The translations under genes were made by a program, and so were the position numbers. DNA of 63,248 nucleotides, the filler included, from Hausera hauseri (lineage: Eukaryota): the NCBI GenBank assembly GCA_046269625.1. It is 12 parts of 12 records of this genome, joined end to end, with 100 filler letters (N's around TTAATTAATTAA, not from the genome) between each part and the next. Parts side by side here need not be neighbours in the genome. Positions count along the whole stretch, not along the records: positions 52,280 to 58,106 come from JBJURY010182528.1; 11 more parts are not named here. One strand, given 5' to 3'. The stretch's first letter is position 1; every line of letters begins with the position of its first letter. Shown in pieces: positions 6,101 through 58,106 of this stretch. Under the pieces are notes generated by a model. The model saw only the letters and a program-made list of their open reading frames with translations. It did not search any database and was not told where the DNA came from.

Positions 6101-6188
6101 CTATAAATTTATTCCTTTTATTCTTTGAGTGTTGGTTTACATCGGTGATTTGTTTATGCATTTTTGTAAGATATTGCAGACAAGACAT
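3152..6188 (-). pseudogene. Degenerate series of orphan ORFs with signal/TM segments
   Basis: Co-oriented ORF pieces separated by stops and frameshifts, with hydrophobic segments LFSCILSLCMTNVLA, VIIIINIFTII and LLLLITIIPPTVTIIILVLTL. Confidence 0.45.
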
Positions 6189-6275
6189 TGTAGTTAGTAG
6201 ATGGAAGTGAGCGCACTGAGCCAACCCCCCCCCCCCCCGGCGGAAGGAAAACTTCTCTGATTGACCAATCAGAGA
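6184..6275 (-). promoter_or_regulatory. Putative promoter/leader: CCAAT-containing palindrome, poly-G run and conserved leader
   Basis: TCTCTGATTG-AC-CAATCAGAGA perfect inverted repeat at 6254-6275, then a G-run and a leader that aligns without gaps to 31720-31770. Confidence 0.5.
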
Positions 6276-6294
6276 GCAGGGAGGGAAAGAAAAA

Positions 6295-6394
6295 NNNNNN
6301 NNNNNNNNNNNNNNNNNNNNNNNNNNNNNNNNNNNNNNTTAATTAATTAANNNNNNNNNNNNNNNNNNNNNNNNNNNNNNNNNNNNNNNNNNNN
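6295..6394. other. Artificial contig linker (first of 11)
   Basis: N-run + ttaattaattaa (stops in all six frames) + N-run, 100 nt. It recurs at 10398, 14673, 20084, 24390, 29452, 35968, 41021, 47892, 52180 and 58107. Confidence 0.99.
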
Positions 6395-6770
6395 ACAAAT
6401 TCCAATTCGGATAGAAATCGAGGAAATTACAAAAGTTATAACTATCAAAATCATTACGATGATAATCGAAACAATGATAGTCGACGAAATATAGGTAGTA
6501 CATAAGGTTCGACGAATCTGTACAATAGAAGCCTAAATAAGAATAAGTCCCTGTACATGAAGACGGTAGACAGAGTGTAGACAGAAATGGAAATTTAGTT
6601 TGTTTTACTTGCAGAAAGGAAGGACACATCGCAAGGTTATGTCCAAATCCGCGTAGTGTCTCATTCGGCGAGTCTAATAAGACTAGTATGATTAAGGCCA
6701 ACAGGAACTTAGAAGCAAAATATGGTGGTCATGGTGATACAGGTACTATTATCGACATACAAGACTTGTG
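6395..6770 (+). pseudogene. Gag C-terminus with CCHC zinc knuckle
   Basis: CFTCRKEGHIARLC (Cx2Cx4Hx4C) at 6601-6642, preceded by an N/R/Y-rich low-complexity tract. Confidence 0.85.
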
Positions 6771-6999
6771 AAAATTTCTAAATGCTCAGCCTAAATCTGC
6801 AAATCCGCAAATTTTGATGATAGAGAAGAACATGGATATAAACTAAGACTATTAGAAGTGTATCATGGTTTAGCAGAGCCAAAAACTGAATATGAGTATG
6901 CGATAGCATCCAAGCGAATTGATATGACACGAAAAAAGAGTATTCATACGAGTAATAAAACTGCCGATACAGCAGGAACTTCGGAAGAAGTCGACTTAG

Positions 7000-9900
7000 A
7001 TGCATAGCCTGAGTTTATCGTTGAAAAAGTAGACAAAACTACTGAAGACGATATAGTTGAAAAAGAATTTATTGAGCCATTAATACTTAAAATTGCAAAA
7101 AATAGAGGTCGCAGCCCCTCATTGAAAACGAAGCGAAGAAGTCGTTCACATTCACAAGTAACTAGAGAGAAAATAGAAGAAACAAAAATACGAAAATCGC
7201 TGTAGAGAGCGACGTAGAGCCTAGATTAAATACGCCAGAAATTGGTCCATTCACATCTATAGAGCTAAAAGAATCTGCAGAGTCAATTAATGAAATTAAC
7301 GAGATTTGCCCATTCCCACAAATGAGGAAGAAATGGGAAATATTGATGATTTTTATTCAAGAAATTTAAAAGTCCGACGTTCGTGGAAAAATGCCGATAA
7401 ATTAAAGAAAATGAGAATTAGATGCCACGATCCAGAAATATTACAGCGAAATTTAGAAAGACTTAAGCAGATTAGTGAACAGGTAGATATATCCGGTAAG
7501 AAGCAACAATTTGCTGAGAGGTTATATAAAAGTTTAAAATTATGTAGTGAAGGAAAGCTCGATGAAGCAATCGACTTATGAAAACCTGAAGAGGTGCCAC
7601 CTGAAACGTTAATAAAATGGAAACGTGAATTAAAATCATGGATTAAAAGTGGAGTCGAATTATCGGAAGGATGGAGCAAAACTAAGATAGTGTCGATGTA
7701 AAAGTCTATAGCTCAGACGCTATTCTTCACCTTGGAAGCAAATCCATGACTAAAGAGAGTAGACCGTAATATAGAGCATATGATGGATGAGATTCTCTGT
7801 GCAATGATTAATCGGCTTAGAGAAAAACCGGTTAACCATCGAAGTGGCGTTGATTTAGAAATATTGAGTATAGACCCAGTAAATATTTCTCCCCTAATGG
7901 AAGTGATAAAAATCGCCTTCACGGTACCCAAACGGTATACAAACCTAGAGAATCGTATCAAAATGGAAAATGAAAGGTGGACACAAATTTGTAGTTTCAG
8001 AAACCGAATTATGTTCCTAAATAACAAAGAAACCAAATACGTAATAAAGGCTTGTATTGTAAAATTTGATGAATATAAGGACGAGTTCAGTTATGTTGGC
8101 CGGATTATGAATTTCATAAAAAGTCCAGATGATGAATTAAAGGATGCGTACAAGATGCTAGACAAGGTTATATTAGCAAAGCCGATAATAACTAACTAAC
8201 TGCGGGAATGGTCCGAATTAGTAGCAAGACTAAGTAAACTAGTGGAAGACCATAAGAAAGAATTTCCAGAGAGCGAACCTTCTATCAAGAAACAATTAGA
8301 AAAAAGTGCACGTAACTTGGATACAATACAAGCGGAAATAGATGTTCGGACTCAATTCGAAGCATTACGACAATTAAACTTTATGAAGAAGAAGCAAGAA
8401 GTGGCGATATTAAAAGTGATATATAAAATGATCGAAGAAACAAACTTTACAGAAAAGCGGAATATGACTTACGAGTTTCACCCAGGATTAATAAATGTCA
8501 AAGTAGAAGGAATCCAACATCTAACAGCTAAATCTATCGATGAAATTTCCATCTAGGATATCGAAACCTTAGATATTTGTCCAGAACATAAAACGACTAT
8601 AGAGAAAGTAATGAGATTCATACATAAGCCACAAGAATGTATAGCTGGAACAGGTCAAAATTGCCATACCGAGCTGACAAAAATAAGAAACCACCACCAT
8701 CTTCGTAAAGAAATTGTTCGATACAATAGATCCCGACTCAAAATTCATTAATGAGATGCACGAGTTAGCCCTTGTCTTAGTAGAAATGGCAGCGATTAGT
8801 GATGAGAAGATGAGACAATTGATGCCTAAAATAAGAGAGGTTGAAGAAACATGCATTAGAACTAAACAAAGAGCAACAAGGTTAGACGAATTAATAAAAG
8901 AGCTCGAAGTCTATCAGAAGAAATATGCTTTTACCGAGTCAAAAATCAAAAATAAGCGTGAATTTGTACAAAGATGGCAAAGAGGTATAACTATCGAACT
9001 AACTGATTATCATCAAAAGGGATTCGTCCATTCTAATGAACTAGGCAAACTACTGAAAATGATTCATTATGTCTGTGGAATCGGAATAGGGTTCTGGACT
9101 AGGCAGATAAAAGAAATACAACTGGTATTGAAAGAAATTAGAGAAAGCGAGCACAGAGCGAATACAACGTTGACAAACTATGGACTTCTATATGTTGGAA
9201 ACGAACCGGAATGGGATGCGTACTTAGATGCATTAACGGCCGAAAATCCTGTGACTCCAGTACAGCTAAACAAAATAGAAACGTGTCCGTAGAACAGAAG
9301 AATCGATGTGGAGATGCTCCTGGATTCAGCGCTAACTGAAAAAGATTTAACGGAACTAATTAACATAAACATTACTGAAAGTAAGTTAGGACAACGTATT
9401 CCGATTTAAACTAAACTATGCAGTGAGAACACAGTTTATAGTGCGGTGCCGAAACTTTTGATAAAGAAATACGCTAAAATCTTGAGGGCTAAACCTCAAG
9501 TAACGATGAAGGTAAGGATATCATCCCAGGGGATGGACGAAAACGAATGTGAGTTTACTACGTATTCCTATGTAAAGGACGTAAGAGAATGGCTAATAAA
9601 TAATGGTGGAACAAACGAGCTAAACTATAGATTCTATTTTAGAGGTAGAATACTAGACTATTTTGAACAGATAATAGACGTCGGAATCATTTCCGACGAA
9701 ACGAATTGAATAGTGGTGATAGTATCCAATGAACGGACTAAAGAAGAAGCCATGCGTAAGGCAAAAACAGAACAATGTGCATGATAAATCATGGGAGTCC
9801 GAGACGCTGCAATGTATTTTGAATATTTACAAACGGATGAAGACAAGGATCAATACGATAAAAATTTAGTTCTACTGAGTAAAAACTTAACCAATGTCCC

Positions 9901-10397
9901 AAGACAGAAACGCCCAGTCGGTAGGCCTAGGAAAATACGAGAAGTAACTGACTATAATGTAGAATTGATTAGAGAATTGAGACAGATGTCGATTCTTACC
10001 TTCAGCACAGACAATGAAGAATTAAGAGAATTAATGAAGAATTTAATACGTATTGTAAATTTTTCGAGCCTTCGAGGCGACACATTAGACAATAAAGTAT
10101 CAAAAAGTAATATAACCGATAAATCGCTAATCGAAAAGATCATGGTGGAAAACACCACTGAAGAATTAAGAAAAGTATCACTGTACTTAGCTATCAAAAT
10201 AAACCATAATCGAGAGAATGAAATTAATAGAGCTACAAGTTTAGCACGAAGAGCGGCGAGAAAGCTACCATGCGAAGTAAACTGCTCGAAATTATTCGAT
10301 AAGAAAGAAAACAAACGGTTCGGAAATGGCAATAGACTCGAAGATATGCTACGTAATTTGACAACGACAGATAATATTAACCGGAAAAACGAATCCA
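7000..10397 (+). pseudogene. Degenerate accessory polyprotein (helical region, ubiquitin-like domain, AT-hook), copy 1
   Basis: Fragments are collinear with the minus-strand ORFs of C5, e.g. RYTNLENRIK, YVKDVREWL.NNGGTNELNYRFYFRGRILD and PVGRPRK. Confidence 0.85.
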
Positions 10398-10497
10398 NNN
10401 NNNNNNNNNNNNNNNNNNNNNNNNNNNNNNNNNNNNNNNNNTTAATTAATTAANNNNNNNNNNNNNNNNNNNNNNNNNNNNNNNNNNNNNNNNNNNN

Positions 10498-13400
10498 AGA
10501 CAACAGCACATAAAATCGTCGGCAATTAAATATTATTTATATATTATTACATCCCATTTACTGTTGTTCATACTGCTTCTATATATTTCTAAAAAAAAGG
10601 AGACCAAAAAGCACAGCCCTTGTTGAGCACAACATCACCGCCCCGTGACAAAGCAACGAATGTGGAGGTAAGAAAGTGGAAAATGTGGAGGAACATTGTA
10701 GTCTGTCTAAGCGGTCTTTGTATGAATAAGACATTGAATACCATCAATATATAGTTCCTTACTGTAGATACTAAATGTGACTGATTTGCGGTGTTTCGAT
10801 GACTTTATATCTGCTTGCTGAGGTAATTGATGTAAAACAATATGGAATGTTGTCGTGTAAGATGTTGTGTCGTACAAGGACGAAAAAGGAAGGGAAGAAG
10901 GAGATGTAAAGGAAAAGGAAATGAAGATTGTTTGACTAGTAAAAATGGAGGTAGGAGCTGGTTTTGAAGTAGGATAGGAATTAGGCGTAGAGAGAGAGGA
11001 AGAAAGAGCAATAGATGAAGGAGCAGATATGGAGGTCGGAAGGGAAAAAGGTGTAGGGGGTGTAGAAACGGAGATAGGAATAGGCAAAGGAGTCAAAAAT
11101 GGTGTAGATGATTCAATTTTGGAATATCACGTACGAAAAAGGCAGGCTTGACGTTGTTTATATGCACCGCTAGTTCCTTACCGTCTTTAGAAATAATGAC
11201 ATTGTGGGAGTGCAATTTAACAAGTTTGTAGGGCCCCAAATGCCGTGGTTGAAAACCGCACGCATCTAGTTTCTCAATCAGACAAACTTTGCAGAATATA
11301 AATCATCAGGAGGGTACATTTTATTGTTATGTAGTATTCTGAAGAATGAATCTTTATTGACTGCGGCAAAGTGGTCCTGTGCTGCTCGGATCATTTCGTC
11401 TGTGGGTGTATCTTCCAAGACAGTTAGCCCAAATAATGAAAGTAAGGGGCTCTGAATAGGGCTTCGGTAGGTGAACATCCTGTAGAAGTGGATGGAGTGT
11501 TTCGCCAACCTAGCAGAACTAACGGAAGTAGGGCTGTCGAACTGTTATTGGATTCAACGAGGATTCTTAACCACGTTTTCGGTGTTCTGTGGAATCTTTC
11601 TAAAAGACCATTCGATTGGGGATGATACGGTGTTATGCGTATATGGCTGATTCCTAATCGATTAACGAGTGATTTAAACAGGTTGGATTCGAACTGAGGA
11701 CCTTGGTTTGTAATAATAAATCTAGGGGATCCAAACCTGCTGATCTATGTGCGGATGAAAACGTCGGCTATTGTTTCCGTGTTAGTGCTCTGCAGAGGGA
11801 CAGCTTCTGGCCATCGCGAGGAACGATCCATCATTGTCAAAATAAATTAATGACCGTTGTCAGGCTGGAGAGGGCTAACAAGATCTCTATGTACGGACTC
11901 CAAACGCGATGATATAGTGGTAGCCTCAAATGCCTGATGGTTTTAAATTTTTGGCAGGCCACATATTCCTTCACCCACGCTTGCACATCAGAACGCATAG
12001 ACGTCTAAATTACCTGTCGGTGAAGCAAGCGAAAAATGGCTTTAGCACAAAGATTATGTAGTGAATGTACGCTGTTGAATGCCTGTTTTTGCAAGGCCGG
12101 AGCTAAGATTATTTTAGCCTGTCCTGGTTTGGATGTGTCCAAAGCCACACCGTCAATGATATTGCAGGACGTAAAAGATTTAAGGATGTCTTGGGGTGGT
12201 TGGTTTTCCTGAAGCTGGTTTGGAGTAAAAATAGGCTTAAACTTAGTTGAGCTTACGGACCTAGATAAAAAGTCGGCGACCAAGTTGTTAGCGCTGTTGA
12301 TATGTTTTATTTCGAAATTAAATGTCGGCAAATATGAAATTTATCGTTCCTGTCGCGTAGAAGGATGTTTCATTACTATGATGTTTATTAGGTGTTTATG
12401 GTCGGTTTGTATGGTGAAACGCCGAGCAGTGAGCAAATGTTAAAAATGTTTTAAGGCAAAAACTATAGCTAGTAGTTCTCGGCCGAACGTGGAGTATCTG
12501 TTTTTAGAAGATGTTAGTTTGCGTGAAAAGAACTCCAGCGGTTGATTTTCGCCTAAAGCGGTAGTAGAGGCGTCTGTAGTAAGAATAAGCTCAGCGTCTG
12601 GCTTAGGGTATGCTAATATTTCGACAGTTTTTAGGCCTTCTCTTAACTTATGAAACTTATCTAGGAGTTCCGGCATACACTGTATTTTTTGATGCTTTAT
12701 TCCGCTACTTAGGTAAGCAAAGGGTGCGGTTAGATAGGAGCAGTATGGAACATATTTGTGGACAAAATGTAATGTGTCTAGGAAACTCCGAATTTCATTT
12801 GATGTTCGCGGTAATTGCACGTTTTTGAGGACTTCGACACGGTTAGGCTGAGGCGAATGTCCTTAGAGAGAGATAACGTGTCCGAGGAAATTTATGCGTC
12901 GTTTAAAGAAATGATATTTTGTAAAGTTTACTTGGAGGTTGTATTAGTGTAAACGGTGAAAGATGGATCGTAGATGTTCCTCATGCTCTTTGATGGATGA
13001 AGAAGCAACTAGAATGTCGTCAATGTAAGGATGAGCATAAGGAAGATAAAAAAATGGCATCTATGTGATGCGGAAAAGTTTGTGTTATTCCGTAGGCCAA
13101 AAGACACGTATAAGTATTTGTAAAGGCCGAAGGGTGTAGTAACGGTGGTTTTTTTGATATCTTCTGGTGCCACAGAGATTTAGTGATAAGCCCTTACCCA
13201 GTCAATAATGGAATAGATTGTGGTGGAATTGAGACGATGTGATGTCTTTTATCAATGTTAATGTGTACGTGTCCATTATATTCAAAGAGTTTAGTTGCCA
13301 ATAGTCACCACATGATCGCCACAATCCGTACTTTTTTGCATAACTTGTAAAGGAGAAGACCATGGTGACTTTGATCGACATACAATGCCGGAGTGTTCAA

Positions 13401-20191: not shown

Positions 20192-21646
20192 TTATGAGGT
20201 GACTTGAAATTTATCGTCTGTAATTCCTTTTGCTAGATTCGTTCCTGTCAGCTTGTTGGGAACGGCAGTAATACCTCCATTAGGTAAACTAGCCCAATCT
20301 GTTTCACTGCGTCTAAACATCGGCTGTCCTAAGGTTGCTTCACAATTCTTAAGAATGGTTGGTTGTGTCGCGTTATCCAACAACACTCTCGTCAATGGTG
20401 TAGCTAATCTTGGAGTATTTTGATAAATAACAGGAAGTTCCTGGATACAACGTTTTTCTTCTACATTGATGGGAACTTCTCTCTTTTCACATTTATAGGT
20501 TAATAACACTTCGTCCGTAACTCGACCAAAGATTCCTTCTCTCATGGGAATTATTGGAGAAGCCAATTCTGGGTTCGCATATATAAGAGCCATTTTAGTT
20601 CTCATGATTTCTGTGTCCAATTTGCAGTCGTTCATTATCATTTTATGTTATAATTCCGTTATTCCGACTTGTCCTTTATAGTAGAAGTAATCGTCTCTAT
20701 TTTTTAGGTAGTCCTCAATCCGAACATCCTGCGTTTTCAATTTGTAAGTTTTTGCGTTTATTTCTGTTTCGGCTACGACAAACGCTTCATAGTTTGTGGC
20801 AAACATTACTACGTCGCAACGAGTCATCATCTCTTTTTTTATAAATTTTAGTCCATGCGGATCTGAGATTAATACAGTAGGTGTACGGTGTTCTGATACA
20901 TCTTCGCGTGTCCTTGAGTTAATTTCTGATTTATCCACATATCGTTTTCCGGTAGTTTCATTAAACTTTAGCTCCTCAATTTTGATGAAATTACAGCTTA
21001 TTCCAGGAGGAGGTTCCCATATTATAACCGAACTTCTAAAAGCACATGTTCCTTCTTGTAAATGGCATTTTTGATTCTCAGTGTATAACTTAGTGACGCT
21101 ATGAAACATTACCTTCTGTGATCGCATTTCTGACTCGTAGAAATCCACAACTACTACGTTCGGTTCCAATCCTTTTCCGGTATCGTATTCTGCTCCATTA
21201 CAATGTCCGGTGTGCATGTCCAGTCTTCCAGCCACTATTTTGTATGCTCTGATTATTTTTCCTGGTTGCATTTCTAATTGCATACTGCCCCATTGTGCCC
21301 TTCCGTTCTCTTTGGTTTGTTTGCAGTGCTGACGTTGTAGGTTCATTGGAATTAGCGGGGTAGTTGGCTTAATTATGGAGAAATATCCGTGTATCAGGCT
21401 GCAGTGGAAAATACTGCGGGATCGTCTCAACATGCACTCCATTCCGTTTAATGATATCAATTCTTGTTGTTGATACAGGAAATAACTTTTCTCTCTTGTT
21501 TCTAGTTTGTGCGGTCTAGCATCCTCGCATGTTTCCAAATCCATTAAAGAATATCTTTGGCCTAGTTTAAACTTATCGCAATTGTAGACGGTTACCATGC
21601 TTATGTACTTTATTAGCATCATTAAGATGAGCAAGCTAACTAGCCA
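20192..21646 (-). pseudogene. Chuvirus-like class III fusion glycoprotein ectodomain (env)
   Basis: Internal signal peptide, then VYNC..YSLMDLETC, C.LRRSRSIFHC, GHCNGAEY, CHLQEGTC..IIW and, after one stop, EVLLTYKCEKREV..CIQELPV..PLTRVL. This Cys/motif pattern matches recalled chuviral glycoproteins. Confidence 0.8.
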
Positions 21647-24389
21647 ATTTGATTCGTTTTTCCGACCTCCAACGTCTGTCGTTGTCAGGCTACGTAACAT
21701 ATCATCAAATTTATTGTTGTTTCGCTTATTTTCTTCTTTGTCAAATAGTTTTGCCCAATTTACTTCACAGGGCATTCTTCTTACTGCTTTTTGTGCTAAG
21801 CTTATTGCCCGATTGATTTGATTTTCGCGATTGGGATTTATTTTGATAGCTAAGTATAATAACACTTTTCTCAACTCCTAGATGGTGTTTTCTACCATGA
21901 TCTTTTCTATTACTGACTCATCGGTTAAGTTACTTTTTGATAGTTTGAAACGTGAACTTTTCATCATTTTGGCTGCATTAAATATTATCTTTTCTTTATC
22001 ATCTAACACATCTCCCCGAAAACTAGAATAATTCACAATTCGTATTAAATTTTTCATCAGCTCAGTTAATTCGTCATTCTCCGTGCTAAGAGTTGGAATC
22101 GATATTTGTCTCAATTCTCTAATTAACTCTCCACTGTAATCTATTTATTCTCGCAATTTTCTAGGTCTACCTACTGGACATTTCAGTCTCGGACCCTTAG
22201 TGATTGATTCACTTAGTGGTACTAAATTTATGTCGTATTGTTCCTTATCTTTGTCCGTTTGTAGATACTCAAAATACAGGGCAGCGTCTCGGACTCCCAT
22301 GATTTGTCCTACGCATTGTTCTGTTTTAGCTTTACGTGTGGCTTCTTCTTTTGTCTGTTCAATAGCTATTACTGCCACTATCCGATTTTTTTCGTCGGGA
22401 ATAATCCCGACGTCTATCAATTGTTCCAAGTCATCTAATATTCTACCTCTAAAATAAAATCTGTAATTTAACTCATTTGTCCCGCCATTGTTTACTAGCC
22501 ATTCTCTTACGTCCTTTACGTAGGAATCTGTAGTCAATTCGCATTCTTTTTCGTCCATCCATTCGGATGACACTATTACTTTTATCGTCACCACAGGTTT
22601 AGCCCTCAAGAATTTAGCGTACTTTCTTATCAAAAGTTTTAGCACCGTACTATATATCGTGTTTTCGCTAGATAATTTAGTTAGAGTTGGAATAAGTTGT
22701 CATAGTTTATTTTCGGTCATATTTACGTTAATTAACTCAATCAAATCCTTTTCAATTAGTGCTGAATCCAGTAGCATCTCCACATTGAACCTCCTGTCCC
22801 GCGGACATGTTTCTATTTCATTTAGTTGTACTGGCGTCGTAGCTTTCCCGGAAAGTATCTCATCGAAGTATGCATCTCATTCGGGTTTGTTTCCGACATC
22901 TAGAAGTCGGTAGTCTACTAACGTCGTATTAGCTCTTTGGATGCTTTCCCGAATTTCCCTTAATCTAGGTTGTTTTTGTTTCATTTGCGTAGTTCGGAAA
23001 CCTACTCCATTCCCACAGGCATACTGGATCATTTTCAGTAATTCACCGAATACGTTTGAGTCGATGAGTCCCTTTTGGTGATAATCTGTCAATTCGAGAA
23101 TCACATCCTTTTGCTATCTTTGTACAAATTCTCGTTTATTCTTAATCTCTGATTCGGTAAGACCATATTTATTCCGATAGACTTCAAGCTCTTTTGTTAT
23201 TTCATCTAACTCTGTTTCTCTTTGTTTCGTTTTGATACATGTTTCTTCTACTTTCTGTATTTTGGGCATCAACTGCCTCATCTGATCATCACTGATTTCT
23301 GCCATTTCCAATAATAGATAGGCTAGCTCATACAACTCATAACCTTTGAATCAGGGTCCATTGCATCCTGAAAGCTAAAATGTGGGTCGTTTCCGATTTC
23401 TATCAACTTGCTATGGATGTTCTGGTCTGATCCGGCCATCCATTCTTGAGGTTCGTGTAGAAACCTTATTGCATCTGTTAACATATTTTGATATCCGGGA
23501 CAAATATCCAAGATTTTAATATCTTGTACCGAAATTTCGTCGATTGGTTTTCCTGTAGAGTATTGGACTCCTTCTAGTCGGACAATCCTTAACTTTAATT
23601 TTACATCATAAATCATATCCCGTTTCTCCGTAAAGCTCGTTTTTTCGATCAATTTGTAGATTTCCTCCATCGTTGATGCTTCTCGTTCCTGTTCCATAAA
23701 TTTTAGTTGTCGTAGCGCTTCAAATCGAGTACGGATGTCTATTTCTATTTGCAACGTGGCTAAATTGTGCGCACTTTCCTCTAATTGCTTCTTCACTGTT
23801 GGATCGCTTTGCGGAAATTCTGTTTTGCGATCTTCTACCAATCTGGTTAGTCGCATTACTAGTACGGACCATTCCGATAATTGATTTGCGATTACCGGTT
23901 TCGCCATTATGGCTTTATCTAGCATCTTGTAGGCATCTTCTAACTCATCATTCTGTCCTTTTAGGAAATTCGTAACTCGTCCGACATAACTAAACTCGTC
24001 CTTGTACTCGTCTAACTTTAAGATACAAGCTTTTATTACATATTGAGTATCCTCGTGGCTTGGAAACATAATACGGTTCCTCAACCCATAAATATATGCT
24101 CGTATTTCATTTTCTAATTTAATACGATTCTCTAAATTCGTATACCGTCTAGATACGGCAAACGTGAGTTTAATCATCTCCATCAAGGGAGGAATATCTA
24201 CTAGGTCTATACCAAATATTTCTAAATCGACATTACTTCGATCAACAACCGGTTTTTCTCTAAGTCTGTAAATCATTGCTAGGCGAATTTCATCCATCGT
24301 ACACTCTAGACTGCGAGTTGCTTTCTTTAATTTCGGGTTTACTTCTAGAGTGGATAGTAATGTCTGAGATTTAGTGACTTTTACGTCAA
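21647..24389 (-). pseudogene. Degenerate accessory polyprotein (helical region, ubiquitin-like domain, AT-hook), copy 2
   Basis: Homologous to C2. UBL at ~22370-22595, GRPRK at ~22160; the last segment runs in frame into the glycoprotein. Confidence 0.85.
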
Positions 24390-34085: not shown

Positions 34086-35967
34086 TAGAGGGAAAATGGG
34101 GGTTCTCTCTCACCCCGGGGGGAGTAATTGATAAATTAAATTGCATATGTGCCAATCGATAGTGCACACTGTACACTATCGATTGGTAGTGTGTTAGCTG
34201 ACAATGCCCTTAGACACCGGTGCTACGCACATTTTTGCACATTTCACAAAATCGATAACTGCATAGTGCATTATTGATTAAATAGATCGGGATAAAATGC
34301 TAATCGATAGTGCACATCAGTTAGAATCGATTAGCCCACAGTGCAGGAGTGCAGCACATGTGCACGTGTGCAAAAATCAATAATATGGGATTTCCGATAA
34401 TTCCAATATTGATGATTAGGACACGGCACCGAGTGCAGTCAATAGCACACATGATGGACTGTGTCAATGTGCAGTTAGAATTTAAATATATTGATTGGTT
34501 TTCAAATAATTCCCAACTGAGGGAGAACCCGCATAGGCCTTTTCGCTATTAAATAAAAATCGATAATCAAATCCGGGGCAAGTAATTGTAGGTAGTACAC
34601 ACGGTGCACTACCAATATGGAAATAATCAATGTGGAGGTGCCCTTGGATAAGGTTGCCAAAGCACTTTTTCACTTTTCACATATTTGTCACTGCACAGCG
34701 TAGGATTGATGGAATCGATCGGTGTCAAGTGCAGGTAGATAGAGCACATCGATATGCACCTTGGTATATACTGCGCAGTGCAAAAGCAATAATATCGTAT
34801 TTACGATATTTTCAATATTGATGATTAGGACATGTGACTGGGTGCATTCAAACAAAAGCATGGTACAGTATATGAATGTGCAGTTAGAATTTAAATTTGT
34901 CGATTAGTTTTCGAATAATATCAATCCAAAGTGCAATTGAGGCAGACTTCCTATAGGCTTTCTAGGCCCTAAGGGAACAAAATTCGATATTATAATTAGC
35001 GGGAACAGATAGAAAGTCGACTATGGTGATGTCGAATCTCAAGTCAGGTATTTGAAATTAGAATATTTTAACATCGAATATCCAACTATTCGAAAAATCT
35101 AACAAAGGCATTCGATTCCTCATATATGAAAACCCCCTTATGCATAAAAATCATTCCACGAAAATGTACTATATAGATACAAAATCAATATTTTGAATTA
35201 AGCAATATGCGCATTTAAAGTCCAGTGAAGCGGAAATCGGTAAATCTAATAGCGGGGTAGGATAGGAAGTCGTGCATATTAAATTTTGAAATATAATGTT
35301 AGATATTCGAATTCGAGCTTACAAGTAGAATACTTAGCTATTCGAACTGAAATATTCGGTGAAGCATGCATTATTCGACGAATCTAATGAAATCATTCGA
35401 TTTCCCATGTAGGAAAACCTATTTGAATTTGCGCCGTCATGTGTTTAATTTAACTGATTCATTAAAACAAAAAGCGCATTAAAACCAATCACTAAGCGAG
35501 ACAGTACATGGTGATATGGCAATATATTTCATTATTTCCAAAATCACTTTAACGATAGGTGAGTTTTTTAATTGTGCTCCTCAAAATAATTGGTTGATTT
35601 TTAGATATGCAAATTTTACAGCAGATGTTTGGTTCAAATCCACGAGCCTAAAAACTGCCACAGTATAATAAACAAGTACTTTGGCCATCTATACAAAGGA
35701 TTCAGTATTATATATGCTTTACATGTGAGGTAGTGTGTCACATCAATTATTAAGACTTTTACAATGTCCATAAACAGCACATAATTTCCTTCAGCAAGTC
35801 GAAAAAACAAATATTCAGTGCAAATATGCAAATAACGACTTTTGAGTCAAAGGAAAATCAAAGATGCAGTTTATACGTGTATTGCACATGTGCAATACAC
35901 AACCCTCAGAACTGCAATAATACTATGAGGAGCTATTATTAATACAAATTTAACAGGATCTTCTATT
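34086..35967 (+). mobile_element. Palindrome-rich DNA element terminus, copy 1
   Basis: Collinear with the reverse complement of 42848-44606; starts TAGAGGGAAAA and truncates the mariner. Confidence 0.8.
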
Positions 35968-42847: not shown

Positions 42848-44606
42848 ATACACATATGAACTACATCTTTGATTTTCCTTTGGCAGGAAAGTCGTTATAG
42901 GCATATTGGTACTGAATATTTGTTTTTCCGACTTGGTGAAAGAAATCCAGTGCTATTTATAGACATTGTAAAAATCTTCATAATTGGTTTGACACACTAC
43001 TTCACATGTAGGGCATATATAATACTGAACCCGGTTGTATAGATGACCAAAAGTACTTCTTCATAATACTGTGGCAATTTTCATTCTCTGTAAAGATTGC
43101 ACATCTAAAAATCAACCAACTATTTTGAGGAGCACAATTAAAAATCTCACCATTCGTTGAAATGATTTTGGAAGTAATGAAATATATTACCATTTCAACA
43201 TATACTGCCTCTCTTATTGATTGGTTTTAATGCACTTTTGTTTTAATGCATCAATTAAATTAAATACATGTCGGTGCCAAATTTAAAGTTTTCGACCATG
43301 GGGAATGGAATGACGTCATTAGTTTCTTCGAATAATGCATGCTTGATCGAATATTCTAGTTCGAATAGCTAAGTATTCAACTCGGAAGCTCGAATTCGAA
43401 TAGCTAACATCATATTCCAGTTCAACATACGTGACTTTTTATCCCGGCCCTCTTATGGATTTATTGATTTCCGCATCACTGGGCTTTAAATGCACATTTT
43501 GCTTAGTTCGAAATATTGATTTTGTATCTATATAGTACATTTTCATGAAATAATTTTTATGGATAAGGGGGCTTTCATATATGAGGAATCGATTGCCGCT
43601 GTTAGATTTTTCGAATAGTTCGATTGCCATAGATTGCCATACTCGATTTTCTATCTATCCCCGCTAATTATAATATCGAATTTTGCTCCCTTGAGGCCTA
43701 AAAGGCCTATGGGGAATCTGTCCCAGTTGCACTTTGGATGGATATTATTCGACATCTATTAGATAAATTTAAATTCTAATTGCACATTCATATACTGCAT
43801 TATGTTTGTGTTTGAATGCACCCAGTCACATGTCCTAATAATCAATATTGGAAATATCTGAAATCCGATATTATTGATTTTTGCACACTTGTACATGTGT
43901 TTTTGCACTGTACAGTATATATCAAGGTGCACCTCGATGTGCTCTACCTACGTACACTTGACCCCGATCGATTCCATTATTCCTACGCTGCACAGTGACC
44001 ACTATGTGAAAAGTGAAAAAGTGTCTTGGCAACCGTATCCAAGAGCATCTCCGCCTTGAGTATTGCACTGAACCATAGTACATCAAGTACTCTACCCGTC
44101 AGTATATGTGCCATATTGATATTATTTATTTTCATTTCATAGCGGAAAGGCCGATTGTAAGTCTGCCTCAGTTGGCAATTATTCGAAGACCAATCAATAT
44201 ATTTAAATTCTAACTGCACATTCACATAATGCATCGTGTGTGTTTTCTATTGCACGCAGCGCCGGGTACTAATCGTCGATATTGGGATTATCGGAAATCT
44301 TATATTATTGGTTTTTTCACACTTGTGCGTGTGCAGCACATCTGCGCAGTGCACTAATCGATGTGCACTGAAGTGCACTATCGATTATCACTTTTCCCGA
44401 TCGATTCGATCAATTGTGTAATGTGCAGCGACCGATTTGTGAAAAGTGCAAAAATGTGCATAGCAAAGGTGCGTAGCGGCACCGTCGCCTAGCACACTAT
44501 TAATCGATAGTGCATAGTGTGCATTATCGATTGCCACATGTGAAAATTGATTTATCGATTACTCCTCCCCCCGGGGTGGGACAGAACATACATTTTTTCC
44601 CTACTA
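42848..44606 (-). mobile_element. Palindrome-rich DNA element terminus, copy 2
   Basis: Reverse complement of 34086-35883; terminus TAGTAGGGAAAA. Confidence 0.8.
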
Positions 44607-52279: not shown

Positions 52280-52675
52280 TCGACCTAATAAATATCCATC
52301 TAATATTTGACTAATTGTGTTTTGTTGATGTTTTATCGACCTAATAAATATCCATCTAATATTGGACTAATTGTGTTTTCTTTATGTTTTGTCGACCTAA
52401 TAAATATCCATGGAATGCTTTTTATGAGAATGAGAAATTGTTTTTGTTTTATTTTTTTTTTAATGGTTAATAAATATCCATCTAATATTTGACTAATTGT
52501 GTTTTCTTGATGTTTTGTCGACCTAGTAAATATCCATCTAATATTTGACTAATTGTGTTGCCTTCATGTTTTGTCGATCTAATAAATACCCATCTAATAT
52601 TTGACAAATTGTGTTTTCGTAATGTTTTGTCAACCAAATATTTGGTCAATTGTGATTTCTAGATGTTTTATCAAT
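52280..52675. repeat. 56-bp tandem array (about 6-7 units) next to Maverick genes
   Basis: Unit TCGACCTAATAAATATCCATCTAATATTTGACTAATTGTGTTTT... starts at 52280, 52336 and 52392 and resumes near 52468. Confidence 0.95.
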
Positions 52676-52806
52676 ATACTAAATAAAATTTATATTTATT
52701 TAATAAAATCGTTTCATTAACCTACAATAAAGCAATAAATAAAAAAAAACATTATCCAAATTATATTTCATTAATCTAATAACCATACACCAGATTTAAA
52801 CTCGTT

Positions 52807-53481
52807 TTATTTGTAATCATAACGGGCTTCTTTGACAATCCATATCGGTAGTTTTATACCATTTCTTTCTTGGTATCCACATATTTCCACATTTATTCGA
52901 CACTTGGCTGAACTGGGCATTGTGTCTAATTCCCGACCAATAACGTCTAACAGTCGAGCTTTTTGTCCAGGAATATAAACTGGTGCATTGAACCGTTCAA
53001 AGGAATTTTTAACGAAGTCCAACTCAGAATCAACTGATTTCAATGTCGAACGAAGACTGTTCATATCACGTTCGCTGACATCCTTTACCTGGTATGCTAT
53101 CTTGGATTTAGTAAGAATAACCGGATCTGTCATTTCAACGGTAATCGGCTCTTGCAAGAAATAAAATAGCCGATTTTTATGTTCATGATTAACTTTCTTT
53201 TGTGTTGCAGGCTTTAGACATAGTTTTTTGCCTGTATTCAATTTGATTTCTTGACGACGTTTTTTATTATTCTTATTTATACCAGTATCAATCATTGCAT
53301 TCTGTCGTTGAAAACTTGGTTTTGATTCTAACATTTGTTTTCCGGATTCTTCTGACATTATATCCTCTATATTTAAATTGTCTTTTTGATCACTGTTACA
53401 TTCGGTATTGATATCGTCATCAGACAAAAGACCAAATAACCAATCTTCGGATATGACATGGTTGTCGGATAAGGAATCCAT
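52807..53481 (-). CDS. Hypothetical protein (acidic N-terminus, basic patch, globular C-domain)
   Basis: Intact 224-aa ORF co-oriented with the TBP-like gene. Confidence 0.7.
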   Translation of the reverse strand: MDSLSDNHVISEDWLFGLLSDDDINTECNSDQKDNLNIEDIMSEESGKQMLESKPSFQRQNAMIDTGINKNNKKRRQEIKLNTGKKLCLKPATQKKVNHEHKNRLFYFLQEPITVEMTDPVILTKSKIAYQVKDVSERDMNSLRSTLKSVDSELDFVKNSFERFNAPVYIPGQKARLLDVIGRELDTMPSSAKCRINVEICGYQERNGIKLPIWIVKEARYDYK

Positions 53482-53558
53482 TGATTAGAATAAATGGAAA
53501 ATGGATTATAGTTTGTTCATTTATAGTTGAAAACGAAATGATAATTACATTGATACGT

Positions 53559-54014
53559 TTAAACAATTAAATTCAGAATGTTTGTAATTATTCCATTAAC
53601 GGTTTCAAAGTATTCTAGTGACTTTAAACCAACAATTACAATCTTTCCGGAACTGAAAACATTTACGCACAAAGGTCGGTACATATTAATACGAAGGGCT
53701 GGAAAAAATTCTGGTTCGAATAAACTGTCAACTCTCCTGGATAATTTATGAAGATTTATTGAAATTCCAAGAGTATATGTAACTGTAATCGATTGAATAC
53801 CATCAATTATAATTATGAAATTGTATTCACTCATCTGTATTTGATGTTGAAGTATTGGTTTCCTACAACCCATAAGACGGCATTTACCTGTTTGAAAAAC
53901 AATTAAACTGAAATCTGGAAGTTTCAGAACACATTGTCGAGGCTTCCATTCATTGAATTTTAAACTTTCAATGGAACCCGAAATGTGACCCTGATAGTTT
54001 ATATTGGATAACAT
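53559..54014 (-). CDS. TATA-binding protein-like, reduced
   Basis: Two TBP-type repeats: LIVFQTGKCRLMG and IQSITV..INLHKL..FEPEFFPALRI..VNVFSSGKIVIVGLKS. Confidence 0.88.
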   Translation of the reverse strand: MLSNINYQGHISGSIESLKFNEWKPRQCVLKLPDFSLIVFQTGKCRLMGCRKPILQHQIQMSEYNFIIIIDGIQSITVTYTLGISINLHKLSRRVDSLFEPEFFPALRINMYRPLCVNVFSSGKIVIVGLKSLEYFETVNGIITNILNLIV

Positions 54015-54105
54015 GATTGTAATACAAATATTATTTCATTTATATACTAATTGATTTGCCCACTTCATTCCAACATCCATTTCATTTCATTTCAGGTGAG
54101 AAAAT

Positions 54106-54573
54106 ATGGAACAAATTTGTTATTGCAATATGGATGATTATAGCCATTTACCGAAAAGAATGAGTAATGGAGCTGCAGGCTATGATCTTTTTTCCGGTGA
54201 AACATTTATTCTAGAGCCACATAGTCAGGAATTAATTGACACGGGAATTCGGTTAATAATTCCTGAGGGATACTATGGTCATATATGCTCCAAAAGTGGA
54301 TTGGCAAGCAAGTACAATATACATGTTGGTGCGGGTATCGTGGATTCTGACTATCGAGGAAACATTAAAATTCTTCTAATCAATCATTCTAAAACGCCAT
54401 ATCCAATACTTACTGGAGAAGCTATCGCACAAATGATAATGAAAAAATATGAAACATTCAGTTTCAAATTCTTATCAGCAGAAGATTTCAACAGTAGCTA
54501 CCATAGTACGATTCGAGGAAATAAAGGTTTTGGACAAATGACAAAATTGAATTATGATTGTAATGATAAATGA
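54106..54573 (+). CDS. dut: Trimeric dUTPase
   Basis: AGYDL, KSGLA, GIVDSDYRG, IAQ and RGNKGFG (motifs 1-5). Confidence 0.95.
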   Translation: MEQICYCNMDDYSHLPKRMSNGAAGYDLFSGETFILEPHSQELIDTGIRLIIPEGYYGHICSKSGLASKYNIHVGAGIVDSDYRGNIKILLINHSKTPYPILTGEAIAQMIMKKYETFSFKFLSAEDFNSSYHSTIRGNKGFGQMTKLNYDCNDK

Positions 54574-54681
54574 ATAAAGTCGGTATTTGAAAAATTCTGT
54601 TTTTGCTTACAATGTAAATTGTACCAAAGGACAATCAATAAATACTATAAACAATTAAGATAAAAAATCCACTGCATCAAT

Positions 54682-55326
54682 ATGCTATTACAAAACAATG
54701 CTGTTTTTCAAATAGTTGGACCGAGCGGAAGTGGTAAAACTCATTTTGTTTGCAAATTACTTCAGAAAGAAAATTTATTTCAAACAGCTTTTCGACACAT
54801 TTATTGGCATCAAGGTGGTGGTGGCGAGGCAGGAATAACTGGGAAAGAATTTTGTAAGCTGAAAAATATATCTGTAATAGATGGATTTGATAAAAACTGG
54901 TCCGATAGATTAAAACATGGCGATGTTATAGTTATAGATGATCTCTACCAGGAAGCCAACAAACAGGGTGATTTCAATAATCTGTTTACGAAAATCGCAC
55001 GTCATAGAAATGTTACGGTTATATTCATTACACAGAATTTATTCCATCAAGGCGGTCATCATCGAACAAGGAACCTGAATGTTCACTATTTGGTTTTATT
55101 CAAAAATCCCCGAGATCAGACTGTAGTGGATTTTGTTGCTAGACAGTCATTTCCCCATAATAAGGGGTTTCTCATCGATGCATTTCATGATGCAACATTA
55201 AAACCTCATGGATATTTGTTTATTGACTTTACACAACAATGTCCAGATGATGAACGTGTTAAAAGTGATATATTCAATTTAAAAAAAATAACGGTCTATA
55301 AACAAAATAAGAAAAATGGAAAATAG
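54682..55326 (+). CDS. Maverick packaging ATPase (A32/FtsK-like)
   Basis: GPSGSGKT, VIVIDDL, ARHRNVTVIFITQ, LFKNPRD and HGYLFID. Confidence 0.93.
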   Translation: MLLQNNAVFQIVGPSGSGKTHFVCKLLQKENLFQTAFRHIYWHQGGGGEAGITGKEFCKLKNISVIDGFDKNWSDRLKHGDVIVIDDLYQEANKQGDFNNLFTKIARHRNVTVIFITQNLFHQGGHHRTRNLNVHYLVLFKNPRDQTVVDFVARQSFPHNKGFLIDAFHDATLKPHGYLFIDFTQQCPDDERVKSDIFNLKKITVYKQNKKNGK

Positions 55327-55336
55327 TATCTTTCAA

Positions 55337-55489
55337 ATGAAGAATCGAAACACGAAGAGATCATTGTTGTCTTATAAACCAAAGCGAAGAAAAAGAACAA
55401 AACGATCAAAGAAGCAGAAGGGTAATGGTATTATAAACAAATATAAACAGCCAGTCAGGAGACGTAAAATACGTAGAAATGCGTTTTAA
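55337..55489 (+). CDS. 50-aa K/R-rich core protein (pVII/mu-like)
   Basis: MKNRNTKRSLLSYKPKRRKRTKRSKKQKGNGIINKYKQPVRRRKIRRNAF; below the ORF-track cutoff and fills the gap between its neighbours. Confidence 0.75.
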   Translation: MKNRNTKRSLLSYKPKRRKRTKRSKKQKGNGIINKYKQPVRRRKIRRNAF

Positions 55490-56309
55490 AAAAGTTCATA
55501 TGAATGTTGATGGTGATAGTAAGAATAGTTCACCAAAACTAAGACGGTTTTCTCGGAGTATACCATATTTCAAATCGTTACTCAGAGCCCCAGCAAACAC
55601 TAGATGGAAAACAATTCATTCAATGCCTCCCTTTGTTCTCAATGATTTTATGTCGGTTTTGCAACAGATTGTTTTGGGTCGTGTTGATATTGGAAAGCAA
55701 AAACAAAGATTGTCCAAATACAGAGAGGTACTCGTTGATATGGCGAAAGCTGTGAGTTTAGCAGCAAAAAAACGGGTTCTTGAAAATCGCTTTCCCGTTG
55801 AACAAATTGGACAACTTAAAGGTAGAAAAAAGAAAAGAGAAAGAAAAGCCATCGAACAACAGTATTTTGGATCTGCAAAAACTCATCAGGTAGGAGATGG
55901 ATTATTCAGTGCAGCGTTGGAAATTTTAGGTAAATTAGGTTCAACGATGAATGAGCAAAACACACCACATGCACTGATCAGACGGATAAAACAACAAAAT
56001 GGTGGATTTTTATTTAGCCCAATTACTTTGGCTAGAGGATTGATGTCACTTACACAAGCGGCAACTAATCCAAACTTTATACATGATGCAGTCCAAATAT
56101 TAGCAAAGAACAATGTCATAAGGAAACCAATTGATAATAATCAAGACGGAAATGGATTTGTTTGGGCAGCTTTATTGCCGATTTTAGGTGCGATAAAAGC
56201 CGCAGCAATTCCAGCTGCGATTACAGCAGGGAAAGCCGCTGCCGTTGGAGCAGCACAAGCAATTGGTGGTTACGCAGCAAAAAAGGCAATTGATGCTGTT
56301 GCTGAATAA
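55479..56309 (+). CDS. Maverick basic virion protein with pX-like hydrophobic C-terminus
   Basis: Basic helical N-domain, then QVGDG, QNGG and QDGNG motifs, each followed by a hydrophobic segment, e.g. FVWAALLPILGAI. Confidence 0.75.
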   Translation: MRFKKVHMNVDGDSKNSSPKLRRFSRSIPYFKSLLRAPANTRWKTIHSMPPFVLNDFMSVLQQIVLGRVDIGKQKQRLSKYREVLVDMAKAVSLAAKKRVLENRFPVEQIGQLKGRKKKRERKAIEQQYFGSAKTHQVGDGLFSAALEILGKLGSTMNEQNTPHALIRRIKQQNGGFLFSPITLARGLMSLTQAATNPNFIHDAVQILAKNNVIRKPIDNNQDGNGFVWAALLPILGAIKAAAIPAAITAGKAAAVGAAQAIGGYAAKKAIDAVAE

Positions 56310-56355
56310 ATAAATGTATAAACAAATATGTATATATCTTTGTTTTCTTTAATTA

Positions 56356-56625
56356 ATGGGACCTGTTCAATCTCTTCCGAATATTAATTTTACCATTCGT
56401 TCAAATTGTTGTAATACTGATGATGACGATGATAAAGTTGATGGAAAAACTGTGGTTCAATCCCGAAGAACCAGTTGGTTATACCGGAGTTTCAAAGCTC
56501 GCCAAGGCCGCAAAGACAACAAAGAAACTGACAGCAGATTGGCTCAGGATGCAGCTGGCATACAGCTTGAACAAACCAATGAGAAAACGGTTTCCAACTC
56601 GAAAATATCGAGTGGCGGGAATTAA
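56356..56625 (+). CDS. Small ORF overlapping the integrase start
   Basis: MG start, SNCC, acidic run then a basic stretch; lies in a different frame from the integrase. Confidence 0.4.
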   Translation: MGPVQSLPNINFTIRSNCCNTDDDDDKVDGKTVVQSRRTSWLYRSFKARQGRKDNKETDSRLAQDAAGIQLEQTNEKTVSNSKISSGGN

Positions 56626-57481
56626 TGAACTCTGGCAAATGGATTTGATGGAAATGATTCCGTACGCACGAATTAACGATGGTAACAAGTATATATTGAC
56701 ATGCATAGACGTATTTAGTAGGTATGCACGTGCCATGCCTGTTAAGAGTAAGTCTGCAAAAGACATTAGTAAGGTTATATCTTCCATGCTTAAAGATGTA
56801 CAGCCGAAATCCATTCAAACGGATTTGGGTAAAGAATTTTATAACAGCTCTGTGAAAGGCATACTAAACAAATATGCCATTAATCATTATTCCGTATTTT
56901 CGCAATACAAAGCTCCACTTGTCGAAAGATTCAACCGAACATTGCGAGGTCGGCTTAACAAATATTTCACAAATCAGGGTAAAAAGACGTGGATTCACAC
57001 TTTACCAAAAATTATCAATGCTTATAATTATTCTGAACACCGAGGTCTCAATGGTATGCGACCAGTTGATGTTACCAATGACTTAAGTACTTGGTTAATG
57101 CAATATGATAAAAAAACCGAACACAGAAAAACAAAACCTAAGTACAAAATCGGTGATTTTGTTCGTATTTCGAGAATCAGCACTACACCATTTATTAAGA
57201 ATTTCAATCACAACTGGAGTGATGAAGTCTTCCAAATTTTCGAAATAAACACCCAGCAAATGCCTGTTATGTATGTGATACAAGATGAAGATGGACAGAT
57301 TATTCAGGGTAAGTTTTACGAAGAAGAATTACAGGTATTGCCGGCAAAACCCGATATATACCGAATACAATCAATTCTTCAAACAAAAGGAAAAGGTAAG
57401 TATAAACAATATCTTGTTAAATGGCACGGATACACAACACCTACATGGATTTCCAGTAATCAGATTCAAACAAAACAATGA
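56420..57481 (+). CDS. Maverick retroviral-like integrase with chromodomain
   Basis: WQMDL, CIDVFSRY, QTDLGKEF, VERFNRTL, YKIGDFVRIS, NWSDEVF, GKFYEEELQ and YLVKWHGY. Confidence 0.96.
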   Translation: MMTMIKLMEKLWFNPEEPVGYTGVSKLAKAAKTTKKLTADWLRMQLAYSLNKPMRKRFPTRKYRVAGINELWQMDLMEMIPYARINDGNKYILTCIDVFSRYARAMPVKSKSAKDISKVISSMLKDVQPKSIQTDLGKEFYNSSVKGILNKYAINHYSVFSQYKAPLVERFNRTLRGRLNKYFTNQGKKTWIHTLPKIINAYNYSEHRGLNGMRPVDVTNDLSTWLMQYDKKTEHRKTKPKYKIGDFVRISRISTTPFIKNFNHNWSDEVFQIFEINTQQMPVMYVIQDEDGQIIQGKFYEEELQVLPAKPDIYRIQSILQTKGKGKYKQYLVKWHGYTTPTWISSNQIQTKQ

Positions 57482-58106
57482 GCTTTTACATGGTATTACC
57501 GAGTAATAGCAGTAAAGATACTCGTCCACAAAACACTGCGAGTGAATTCATTGTGGACTATGAAAATCCGATTGAATTAAAAAATGGAAATTGGACTGTT
57601 GGTTTAATTGAATTCTCATTTTTCTACAGTCCACAAAGTATAAGAAGAGGAACGGAGATTGAGTATGAATCGGAATGGGAAATATTGGAGAAAATTGAAT
57701 GTGACATTGAAATTGAAGATCTTGGAAAACTTACTAGCAGTACATTAACGAAATTTACCTATGTTCATGGAGCAGGTATAATAAACAAGCATGTAATATT
57801 TAGTGCTGATGTGGATTTTCAAATTGTGTTTCCTACATTGGAGGATGCTAGAATGTATGGCTTTGAAAGCACGTTAACAAAATCCAATACAGCAACAATG
57901 CCAGAAGGAGTCGTATCAACCAGAAAACATAACGTAGTTGGTTTAAAACTCACAGTACAACCAACAAGAAAAACTAAAATCTCACAGATTTTTATGAAAC
58001 GACAGATGACAACAAAAACATATACATTCAAGAATGATGTTGCTGTTGCCACACCTGAAGACCTCTGTACCTATTTCTTACATAACTGTTCGAGTATATT
58101 TAATAC
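57478..58106 (+). CDS. Maverick minor capsid (penton-like) protein, truncated by contig end
   Basis: FYMVLPSNSS..NTASEF..IEL..WTVGLIEF, the N-terminus typical of the ORF following Maverick integrases. Confidence 0.75.

Follow-up and report, generated by a model that had tools for sequence, protein, structure and literature searches.

A reduced TBP in a Polinton-type element of Hausera hauseri and a candidate late-promoter box, YATAAACR, ahead of virion-module genes

Why would a Polinton-type element carry its own TBP gene, and what would the product read? The window analysed here, a stretch of 63,248 nucleotides (filler included) joined from 12 records of the Hausera hauseri assembly GCA_046269625.1, contains a gene that an earlier note had interpreted as a reduced TBP homologue of a Maverick/Polinton, either redirecting host Pol II to element promoters or acting as a decoy. 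The gene lies on contig JBJURY010182528.1 (window positions 52280 to 58106), 5.8 kb of a partial element with the gene order 56-bp array, orfA(-), TBP(-), dUTPase(+), A32 ATPase(+), 276-aa ORF(+), rve-chromo integrase(+) and penton-like ORF. The features are as follows.

52280 to 52640, no strand: 56-bp tandem array at the contig end, 6.2 copies
52807 to 53481, minus strand: orfA, 224 aa, no Pfam match
53518 to 53525, minus strand: canonical-type TATA box TATAAATG, 44 nt 5' of the orfA ATG
53559 to 54014, minus strand: reduced TBP of 151 aa, helices H1/H2 missing from the N-lobe, C-lobe complete
54037 to 54046, minus strand: canonical-type TATA box (TATATAAATG), 30–32 nt 5' of the TBP ATG
54106 to 54573, plus strand: dUTPase, 155 aa (PF00692, 3e-29)
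54646 to 54653, plus strand: TATAAACA box, 36 nt 5' of the ATPase ATG
54682 to 55326, plus strand: A32/FtsK-type packaging ATPase, 214 aa (PF04665, 2e-7)
55297 to 55304, plus strand: TATAAACA in the 3' end of the ATPase gene (codons Y-K-Q), identical letters in 7/7 family loci checked
55432 to 55449, plus strand: two TATAAACA boxes, 47 and 37 nt 5' of the 276-aa ORF
55479 to 56309, plus strand: 276-aa ORF, N-part matching a small conserved Polinton gene 3' of the ATPase
56317 to 56324, plus strand: TATAAACA box, 103 nt 5' of the integrase ATG
56420 to 57481, plus strand: retroviral-like integrase with chromodomain, 353 aa (PF00665, 8e-13; chromo weak, 0.01)
57401 to 57408, plus strand: TATAAACA box in the 3' end of the integrase gene, 77 nt 5' of the penton-like ATG
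57478 to 58106, plus strand: penton-like gene (putative minor capsid), truncated at the contig end, named from position and similarity to ORFs of loci L012 and L017 (4e-15)

The A32-type ATPase, the rve and chromodomain integrase and the penton-like ORF share the contig with the TBP gene, in line with the assignment of the earlier note; these three features and the dUTPase are shared with Polintons/Mavericks (adintoviruses). Absent from the 5.8 kb are pPolB, the major capsid and the protease; relatives of the element add pPolB, protease and a putative major capsid. The window ATPase shares 75% identity with those of L005, L006 and L017, the C-part of the 276-aa ORF is hydrophobic and Ala/Gly-rich, and the penton-like ORF had no match in the profile library. 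No TIR was seen on the contig. The 56-bp array has a summed contig depth of ~1.2 million versus ~100–140 over the TBP gene (run X1), and because of this very high copy number in the genome we read it as probably satellite DNA of the host and not as a recognisable TIR. The orfA–TBP, TBP–dUTPase and dUTPase–ATPase junctions are each spanned by contigs of runs X1 and X2, one of which may be where the window comes from. Assignment of the locus to a fragment of a Polinton-type element, with its ends outside the contig, is supported. Going by the adintovirus-like gene set, its host would probably be an animal. On other contigs of the window, long inverted matches of 80–87% link 34117–35882 and 42848–44569, on two different contigs, and represent one repeat family, not TIRs, and a chuvirus-type fusion glycoprotein gene (20648–21775, minus strand; PF24664, 5e-15) sits in a region with a 72–77% copy at 7706–10317, likely an env-carrying retroelement.

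The 151-aa protein is a member of the TBP superfamily and not a canonical TBP. The two-lobed saddle fold anticipated by the earlier note is present and takes up the whole 151 aa, with no N-terminal extension. The repeats are likewise as that note described them: the C-lobe (repeat 2) is complete, and repeat 1 is without its helical segments, directly visible both as a model with no N-lobe helix and as shortened helix regions in the alignment (24 versus 30 and 26 versus 34 residues); Pfam detects one TBP repeat only. Three of the four intercalating phenylalanines are kept (F40, F104 and F120; F116, F190 and F207 in yeast numbering), the fourth (yeast F99) being replaced by Pro or a gap. The C-lobe glutamate pair of the TFIIB stirrup, E100/E102, is observed intact, and to judge from sequence the protein would retain the TFIIB-binding feature of a canonical TBP. 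The basic N-lobe H2 patch (TFIIA/TAF1/Brf/Mot1) is absent along with the helix, in model and alignment. Pooled over copies, some of them frameshifted, pN/pS is ~0.27, with 20 synonymous among 40 of the 52 listed differences to other copies; residue R46 differs in one other copy. Runs X1 and X2 contain further TBP copies of ~90% identity, one with a 1-nt and another with a 5-nt deletion in the gene. Runs X5 and X6 gave no sequence over the gene, a result that does not demonstrate its absence from them.

Metagenomes were scanned with the family alignment and the best 80 of 386 loci were kept, of which the top 26 (L005–L030) constitute the family. The TBP gene belongs to a large conserved family and is not a one-off capture. 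Among the 26 loci, 9 carry a Polinton core gene, 13 carry orfA and 23 carry any shared gene (marker queries were derived from the same loci and the counts include self-matches; Pfam matches back pPolB, integrase and protease); the 3 loci with no shared gene are all <1.7 kb. In L022, the family TBP gene lies amid core genes, between pPolB (PF03175) and the ATPase, integrase and putative capsid genes, and L012 contains the protease PF00770; putative capsids were named by position and size, with no informative library match. Core genes occur in only one (L080) of the other 58 loci. Searching by ATPase alone retrieved 6 loci (L085–L090), with TBP in 2 (L085 and L088) and no TBP match in L087, L089 and L090, all partial. 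The viral contigs searched yielded no close relative and no Polinton, only 4 distant TBP loci without Polinton genes. At the level of proteins, 110 clusters (50% identity) score E<=1e-10.

The neighbour orfA adjoins the TBP gene in 13 of the 26 family loci, in tandem, divergent or convergent order, and some members have acidic tails; its atlas leads (Pox_I3 and DUF2738, score 0.84) suggest that it is possibly a single-stranded DNA-binding protein, as a lead only. A 166-aa ORF without Pfam match (L012 3360–3857 and 7 other loci) is the immediate 5' neighbour of TBP in 8 of the 26 loci and looks nuclease-like by eye, going by a motif. In L017, the TBP gene is broken at ~377–416 by some 40 nt that begin with GT and end with AG, probably a spliceosomal intron, and a split at this point may also apply to several database proteins that start with 'MG' in mid-lobe. 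By eye, the sequence separating TBP from ATPase in L027 resembles a tRNA at ~3440–3530, and L022 (7136–8390) and L027 have in common a conserved CT-rich leader motif 5' of KilA-N and 150-aa genes.

We aligned 156 proteins of suitable length and defined the family as the 112 with R122 and N205 (the selection rule), in a yeast numbering derived from plant-type P0097 plus 41, where the labels F99, F116 and F207 are those of yeast TBP. Conservation in the 112 is complete for M124, F190 and F207 and close to it for S/T159 (111), F116 (110), E188 (110) and E/D186 (104), with N71 in 82 and F99 in 0; positions 194/203/205 are mostly R/C/N. Intermediate forms (160–178 aa) keep H1 and a shortened H2 region, and reduced forms are 144–157 aa. 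In a quick IQ-TREE analysis of 85 of the 156 rows (24/61 reduced, 17/33 intermediate, 6/18 mixed and 38/44 others), the family occupies one branch apart from the included cellular-type TBPs (SH-aLRT 96), within which the reduced forms, including the window TBP, are nested (99) among intermediates on a branch that also holds 2 intermediate-binned and 2 mis-binned rows. Given a root outside the family, this nesting implies stepwise helix loss. The TBPs of L080 and L088 fall outside the family on long branches, and the tree singles out no donor of the family.

The DNA face of the protein is altered. Cellular TBP (PF00352; yeast 1ytb, human 1cdw/7egb) has two complete repeats with H1 and H2, whereas the window TBP has a helix-free N-lobe in the model, lacks F99 and differs by V71N, V122R, T124M, N159S, I194R and L205N, among them polar substitutions of the DNA face whose conservation is seen directly in the family. 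TRF2, which has lost intercalating Phe, fails to bind TATA (PMC10005294); unlike TRF2/TBPL1, the window TBP keeps three of the four. The best viral fold matches are NCLDV TBP-like factors (TMq ~0.7, E 8e-8), which are longer (186–547 aa among the top 20 matches versus 151 aa). NCLDV TBPs have a non-conserved N-lobe regulator patch, a feature shared by the window TBP, and most pair with their own TFIIB and have variable stirrup residues (PMC7221094), whereas the stirrup here is host-like.

A candidate target for such a DNA face is the box YATAAACR. All 6 sites on the contig are on the plus strand, ahead of the ATPase, 276-aa, integrase and penton-like genes, and the dUTPase has no upstream YATAAACR; across the whole window the motif is not enriched (22 versus 16 +/- 4, 6 of the 22 being on the TBP contig). 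In the 120 nt 5' of virion-module genes defined by homology, scored against shuffles, we observed YATAAACR for 26 of 31 such genes across family elements (<1 expected per set): 17/21 on the 8 reduced-TBP contigs (shuffle mean 0.66, max 3), including 4/4 on the window contig, and 9/10 on the 3 intermediate-TBP contigs (shuffle mean 0.17). Opposite-strand YATAAACR occurred 0 times in the 120-nt regions scored. TBP genes have YATAAACR in 0/21 cases and TATAWAW in 8/21, a start having been found for all but 7 of 28, and orfA has the box upstream in 2/13 loci. For the site at the end of the ATPase gene, 7/7 loci use the spelling TATAAACAA, even with a low usage of TAT and AAA codons (joint codon frequency 0.10–0.30 in three of these loci). 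The motif was first found on most of the scored loci, which are mutually related (L012 and L015 are near-duplicates), and the only held-out positive is L085, fetched by ATPase after motif definition, which has a family TBP and the box at 2/3 genes in the strict form and at 3/3 as ATAAAC.

Plus-strand YATAAACR sites lie 24–50 nt 5' of an ATG in 38 of 66 cases, compared with 27/111 for YATAAA[AGT] and 106/903 for random positions. Against a promoter reading, 10 of 24 box-to-ATG distances fall outside 30–50 nt, and the common spacing of 32–37 nt implies very short leaders. No clear initiator consensus was seen 3' of the box.

The box changes with the type of TBP. Polinton L080 encodes a full two-lobed 172-aa TBP with different DNA-face residues, and its virion-module genes have YATAAACR in 0/6 and GTAAGAA in 4/6 cases (shuffle 0.2); at 5617–10614 of this locus the divergent TBP gene lies between integrase and capsid genes, and the gene strand carries 11 copies of GTAAGAA against one on the opposite strand. 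L088 has pPolB, ATPase, integrase and protease and encodes a near-canonical 185-aa TBP (11568–12122, minus strand), and together with its partial kin L087 and L090 it has YATAAACR at 0/13 genes and canonical TATA at 7/13 (shuffle mean 2.0, max 6). Elsewhere on the contigs there are counter-examples, with 6 plus-strand GTAAGAA in L022 and 3 YATAAACR in L080. As read from these sequences, the covariation spans three TBP types, two of them from single lineages, and is therefore confounded with ancestry, the set compared comprising no complete Polinton without TBP as a contrast for box–TBP dependence. L088 is filed in a bacterial MAG, and L085–L090 all look eukaryotic while binned into prokaryotic genomes.

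We consider it somewhat better than an even bet that the reduced TBP is the element's private late-promoter factor, reading YATAAACR and working via host TFIIB and Pol II, 'late' being assigned from gene type and the early/late split of boxes from position. Host TBP would first drive TBP and orfA from ordinary TATA boxes. The viral TBP would then read the C at box position 7, which would lie under the remodelled N-lobe; it would favour TATAAACA over TATAAAAG, with C at position 7 the preferred feature among TATAAACA, CATAAACA, TATAAAAG and GTAAGAA. The N-lobe of TBP contacts the 3' half of the box, selections with yeast TBPm3 (I194F/V203T/L205V, which alter specificity) disfavoured C at positions 6–8 (PMC1636458), and it is because the remodelled N-lobe would face this unusual C that we infer an activator of virion genes. 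TFIIB is bound by two C-lobe Glu of TBP, and the N-lobe H2 patch binds TFIIA, TAF1, Brf1/2 and Mot1 (PMC7221094); the kept stirrup would engage host TFIIB and bring RNA polymerase II to virion-module genes, with start sites ~25–31 nt 3' of the box, and loss of H2 would release the viral TBP from TFIIA, TAF1, Brf1 and Mot1/BTAF1. Host TFIIB is the proposed partner; no TFIIB-like gene was noticed on these contigs (no match among ORFs scanned with Pfam, all contigs being partial). The outcome would be a one-gene early-to-late switch. The loss of one intercalating Phe counts against this late-factor reading, as do the residual activity of host TBP on a similar box (see below), the box ahead of orfA in 2/13 loci, its absence ahead of the dUTPase of the window, and the change at R46 in one other copy.

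Herpesvirus vTBPs (KSHV ORF24, EBV BcRF1, HCMV UL87) are the probable functional parallel, with a polar DNA face and a non-canonical late-gene box in common with the window TBP and, by position, a canonical box at early genes. KSHV ORF24 has a polar face, acts on TATT late promoters with host Pol II and is without the TFIIB Glu (PMC12529657). It keeps four Phe and works in a six-protein complex, and ORF24, BcRF1 and UL87 carry a Pol II-binding N-terminal domain and extra C-terminal domains, whereas the window TBP is a bare 151-aa saddle with the TFIIB Glu; the boxes also differ (TATT versus YATAAACR), and structural matches to herpesvirus vTBPs are weak (E 0.02–0.09). By analogy, the protein probably works like a herpesvirus vTBP without being one.

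Two alternatives deny that protein and box belong to a viral promoter system at all. That the gene is a host TBP/TRF paralogue or decaying retrocopy merely beside a Polinton fragment would fit the contig without a visible TIR and the frameshifts in some other copies, and is the least credible reading, as Polinton core genes accompany family members at 9 of the 26 loci and in L085, and the family forms a single clade apart from the included cellular-type TBPs. That YATAAACR is a TBP-independent signal for polyadenylation or termination of the preceding gene would be in keeping with its resemblance to AATAAA variants and with its overlap, in several loci, with the stop codon of that gene. We regard this as very improbable: the box is found at 0/5 TBP 3' ends that no same-strand gene follows and at 0/6 minus-strand orfA 3' ends, where A(A/T)TAAA occurs at 4/5 and 5/6, respectively; 16 of 24 sites start within upstream coding sequence; and the distance to the next ATG is tighter (sd 24) than that to the previous stop (sd 73).

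Other readings accept the viral TBP and give it a different task. Box and TBP may be co-inherited lineage markers, the box being read by host TBP or another factor (e.g. C2H2 or KilA-N) and the viral TBP bending DNA at the termini for replication, packaging or the like; this is unlikely, even though the comparison of three TBP types contains no TBP-less control, a possible ssDNA-binding gene adjoins TBP in half of the family loci (13/26), and L022, L027 and L028 encode C2H2 and/or KilA-N proteins, because the TFIIB-contacting Glu, needless for a replication role, are kept in 104–110 of 112 proteins and the box is TATA-shaped and TATA-spaced. Only marginally less likely is the decoy or host shut-off function of the earlier note, in which the protein would engage TFIIB or host TATA boxes without productive outcome and the box would be read by host TBP alone. 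A kept TFIIB stirrup with lost activator surfaces would suit it, as would residual activity of host TBP on TATAAACG, which retains 27% activity in plant protoplasts (PMC10005294), so that a box of this kind is weakly usable by host TBP. For a decoy, however, there is no need to keep non-canonical DNA-face residues constant across 112 proteins, and this reading leaves unexplained both the different boxes of L080 and L088 and the placing of late genes uniformly on a weaker box than that of the TBP gene itself. Of the two functions in the earlier note, Pol II redirection is favoured on present sequence comparisons, owing to the specific box ahead of virion-module genes that changes with TBP type. 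A repressor that sits on the box, occludes host TBP and silences integrated virion genes would leave identical sequence evidence, and loss of the TFIIA surface could yield a poor activator; it is nonetheless distinctly improbable given the conserved TFIIB stirrup and the activation of late genes by characterised viral TBP mimics (PMC12529657).

Viral TBPs and vTBP-specific late boxes are already known in larger viruses, and mirusvirus-like elements also hold TBP genes (PMC10675990). For related viruses, the only TBP found in print, in the text accessible, is a figure-legend label: in a section on non-animal datasets, Starrett et al. 2021 (PMC8502044) name 'TBP' in the legend of Fig. 5, for MELD viruses whose PolB is adintovirus-like. 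This marks a TBP-like gene in an element of the Polinton class, and is a label only. The accessible text of that paper gives no structure, family or promoter, and its Fig. S2 text (animal maps) has no TBP label. The literature searched, mostly outside subscription papers and accessible in part, contained no account of a reduced Polinton TBP or of a YATAAACR box; PMC12220804 held nothing relevant to either, and an own TBP with a matching late box is outside the Polinton hallmark genes in that literature. New here are the covariation of TBP type with box and the stepwise loss of helices.

At a little under even odds, Polintons run their own orthogonal core-promoter code, in which lineages would hold distinct TBP–box pairs (YATAAACR, GTAAGAA and canonical TATA) and a single 17-kDa TBP, its helices lost stepwise and its DNA face re-tuned, would plug into host TFIIB. 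How Polintons switch on their virion genes bears on their status as active viruses, and the TBP–box pair makes the matter directly testable, with a single small protein and a site of 8 bp. If the late-factor reading is true, TBP can work without the helix bound by eukaryotic regulators, the family would provide a natural altered-specificity series for the study of TATA recognition, and these elements would possess a one-gene viral early/late transcription switch.
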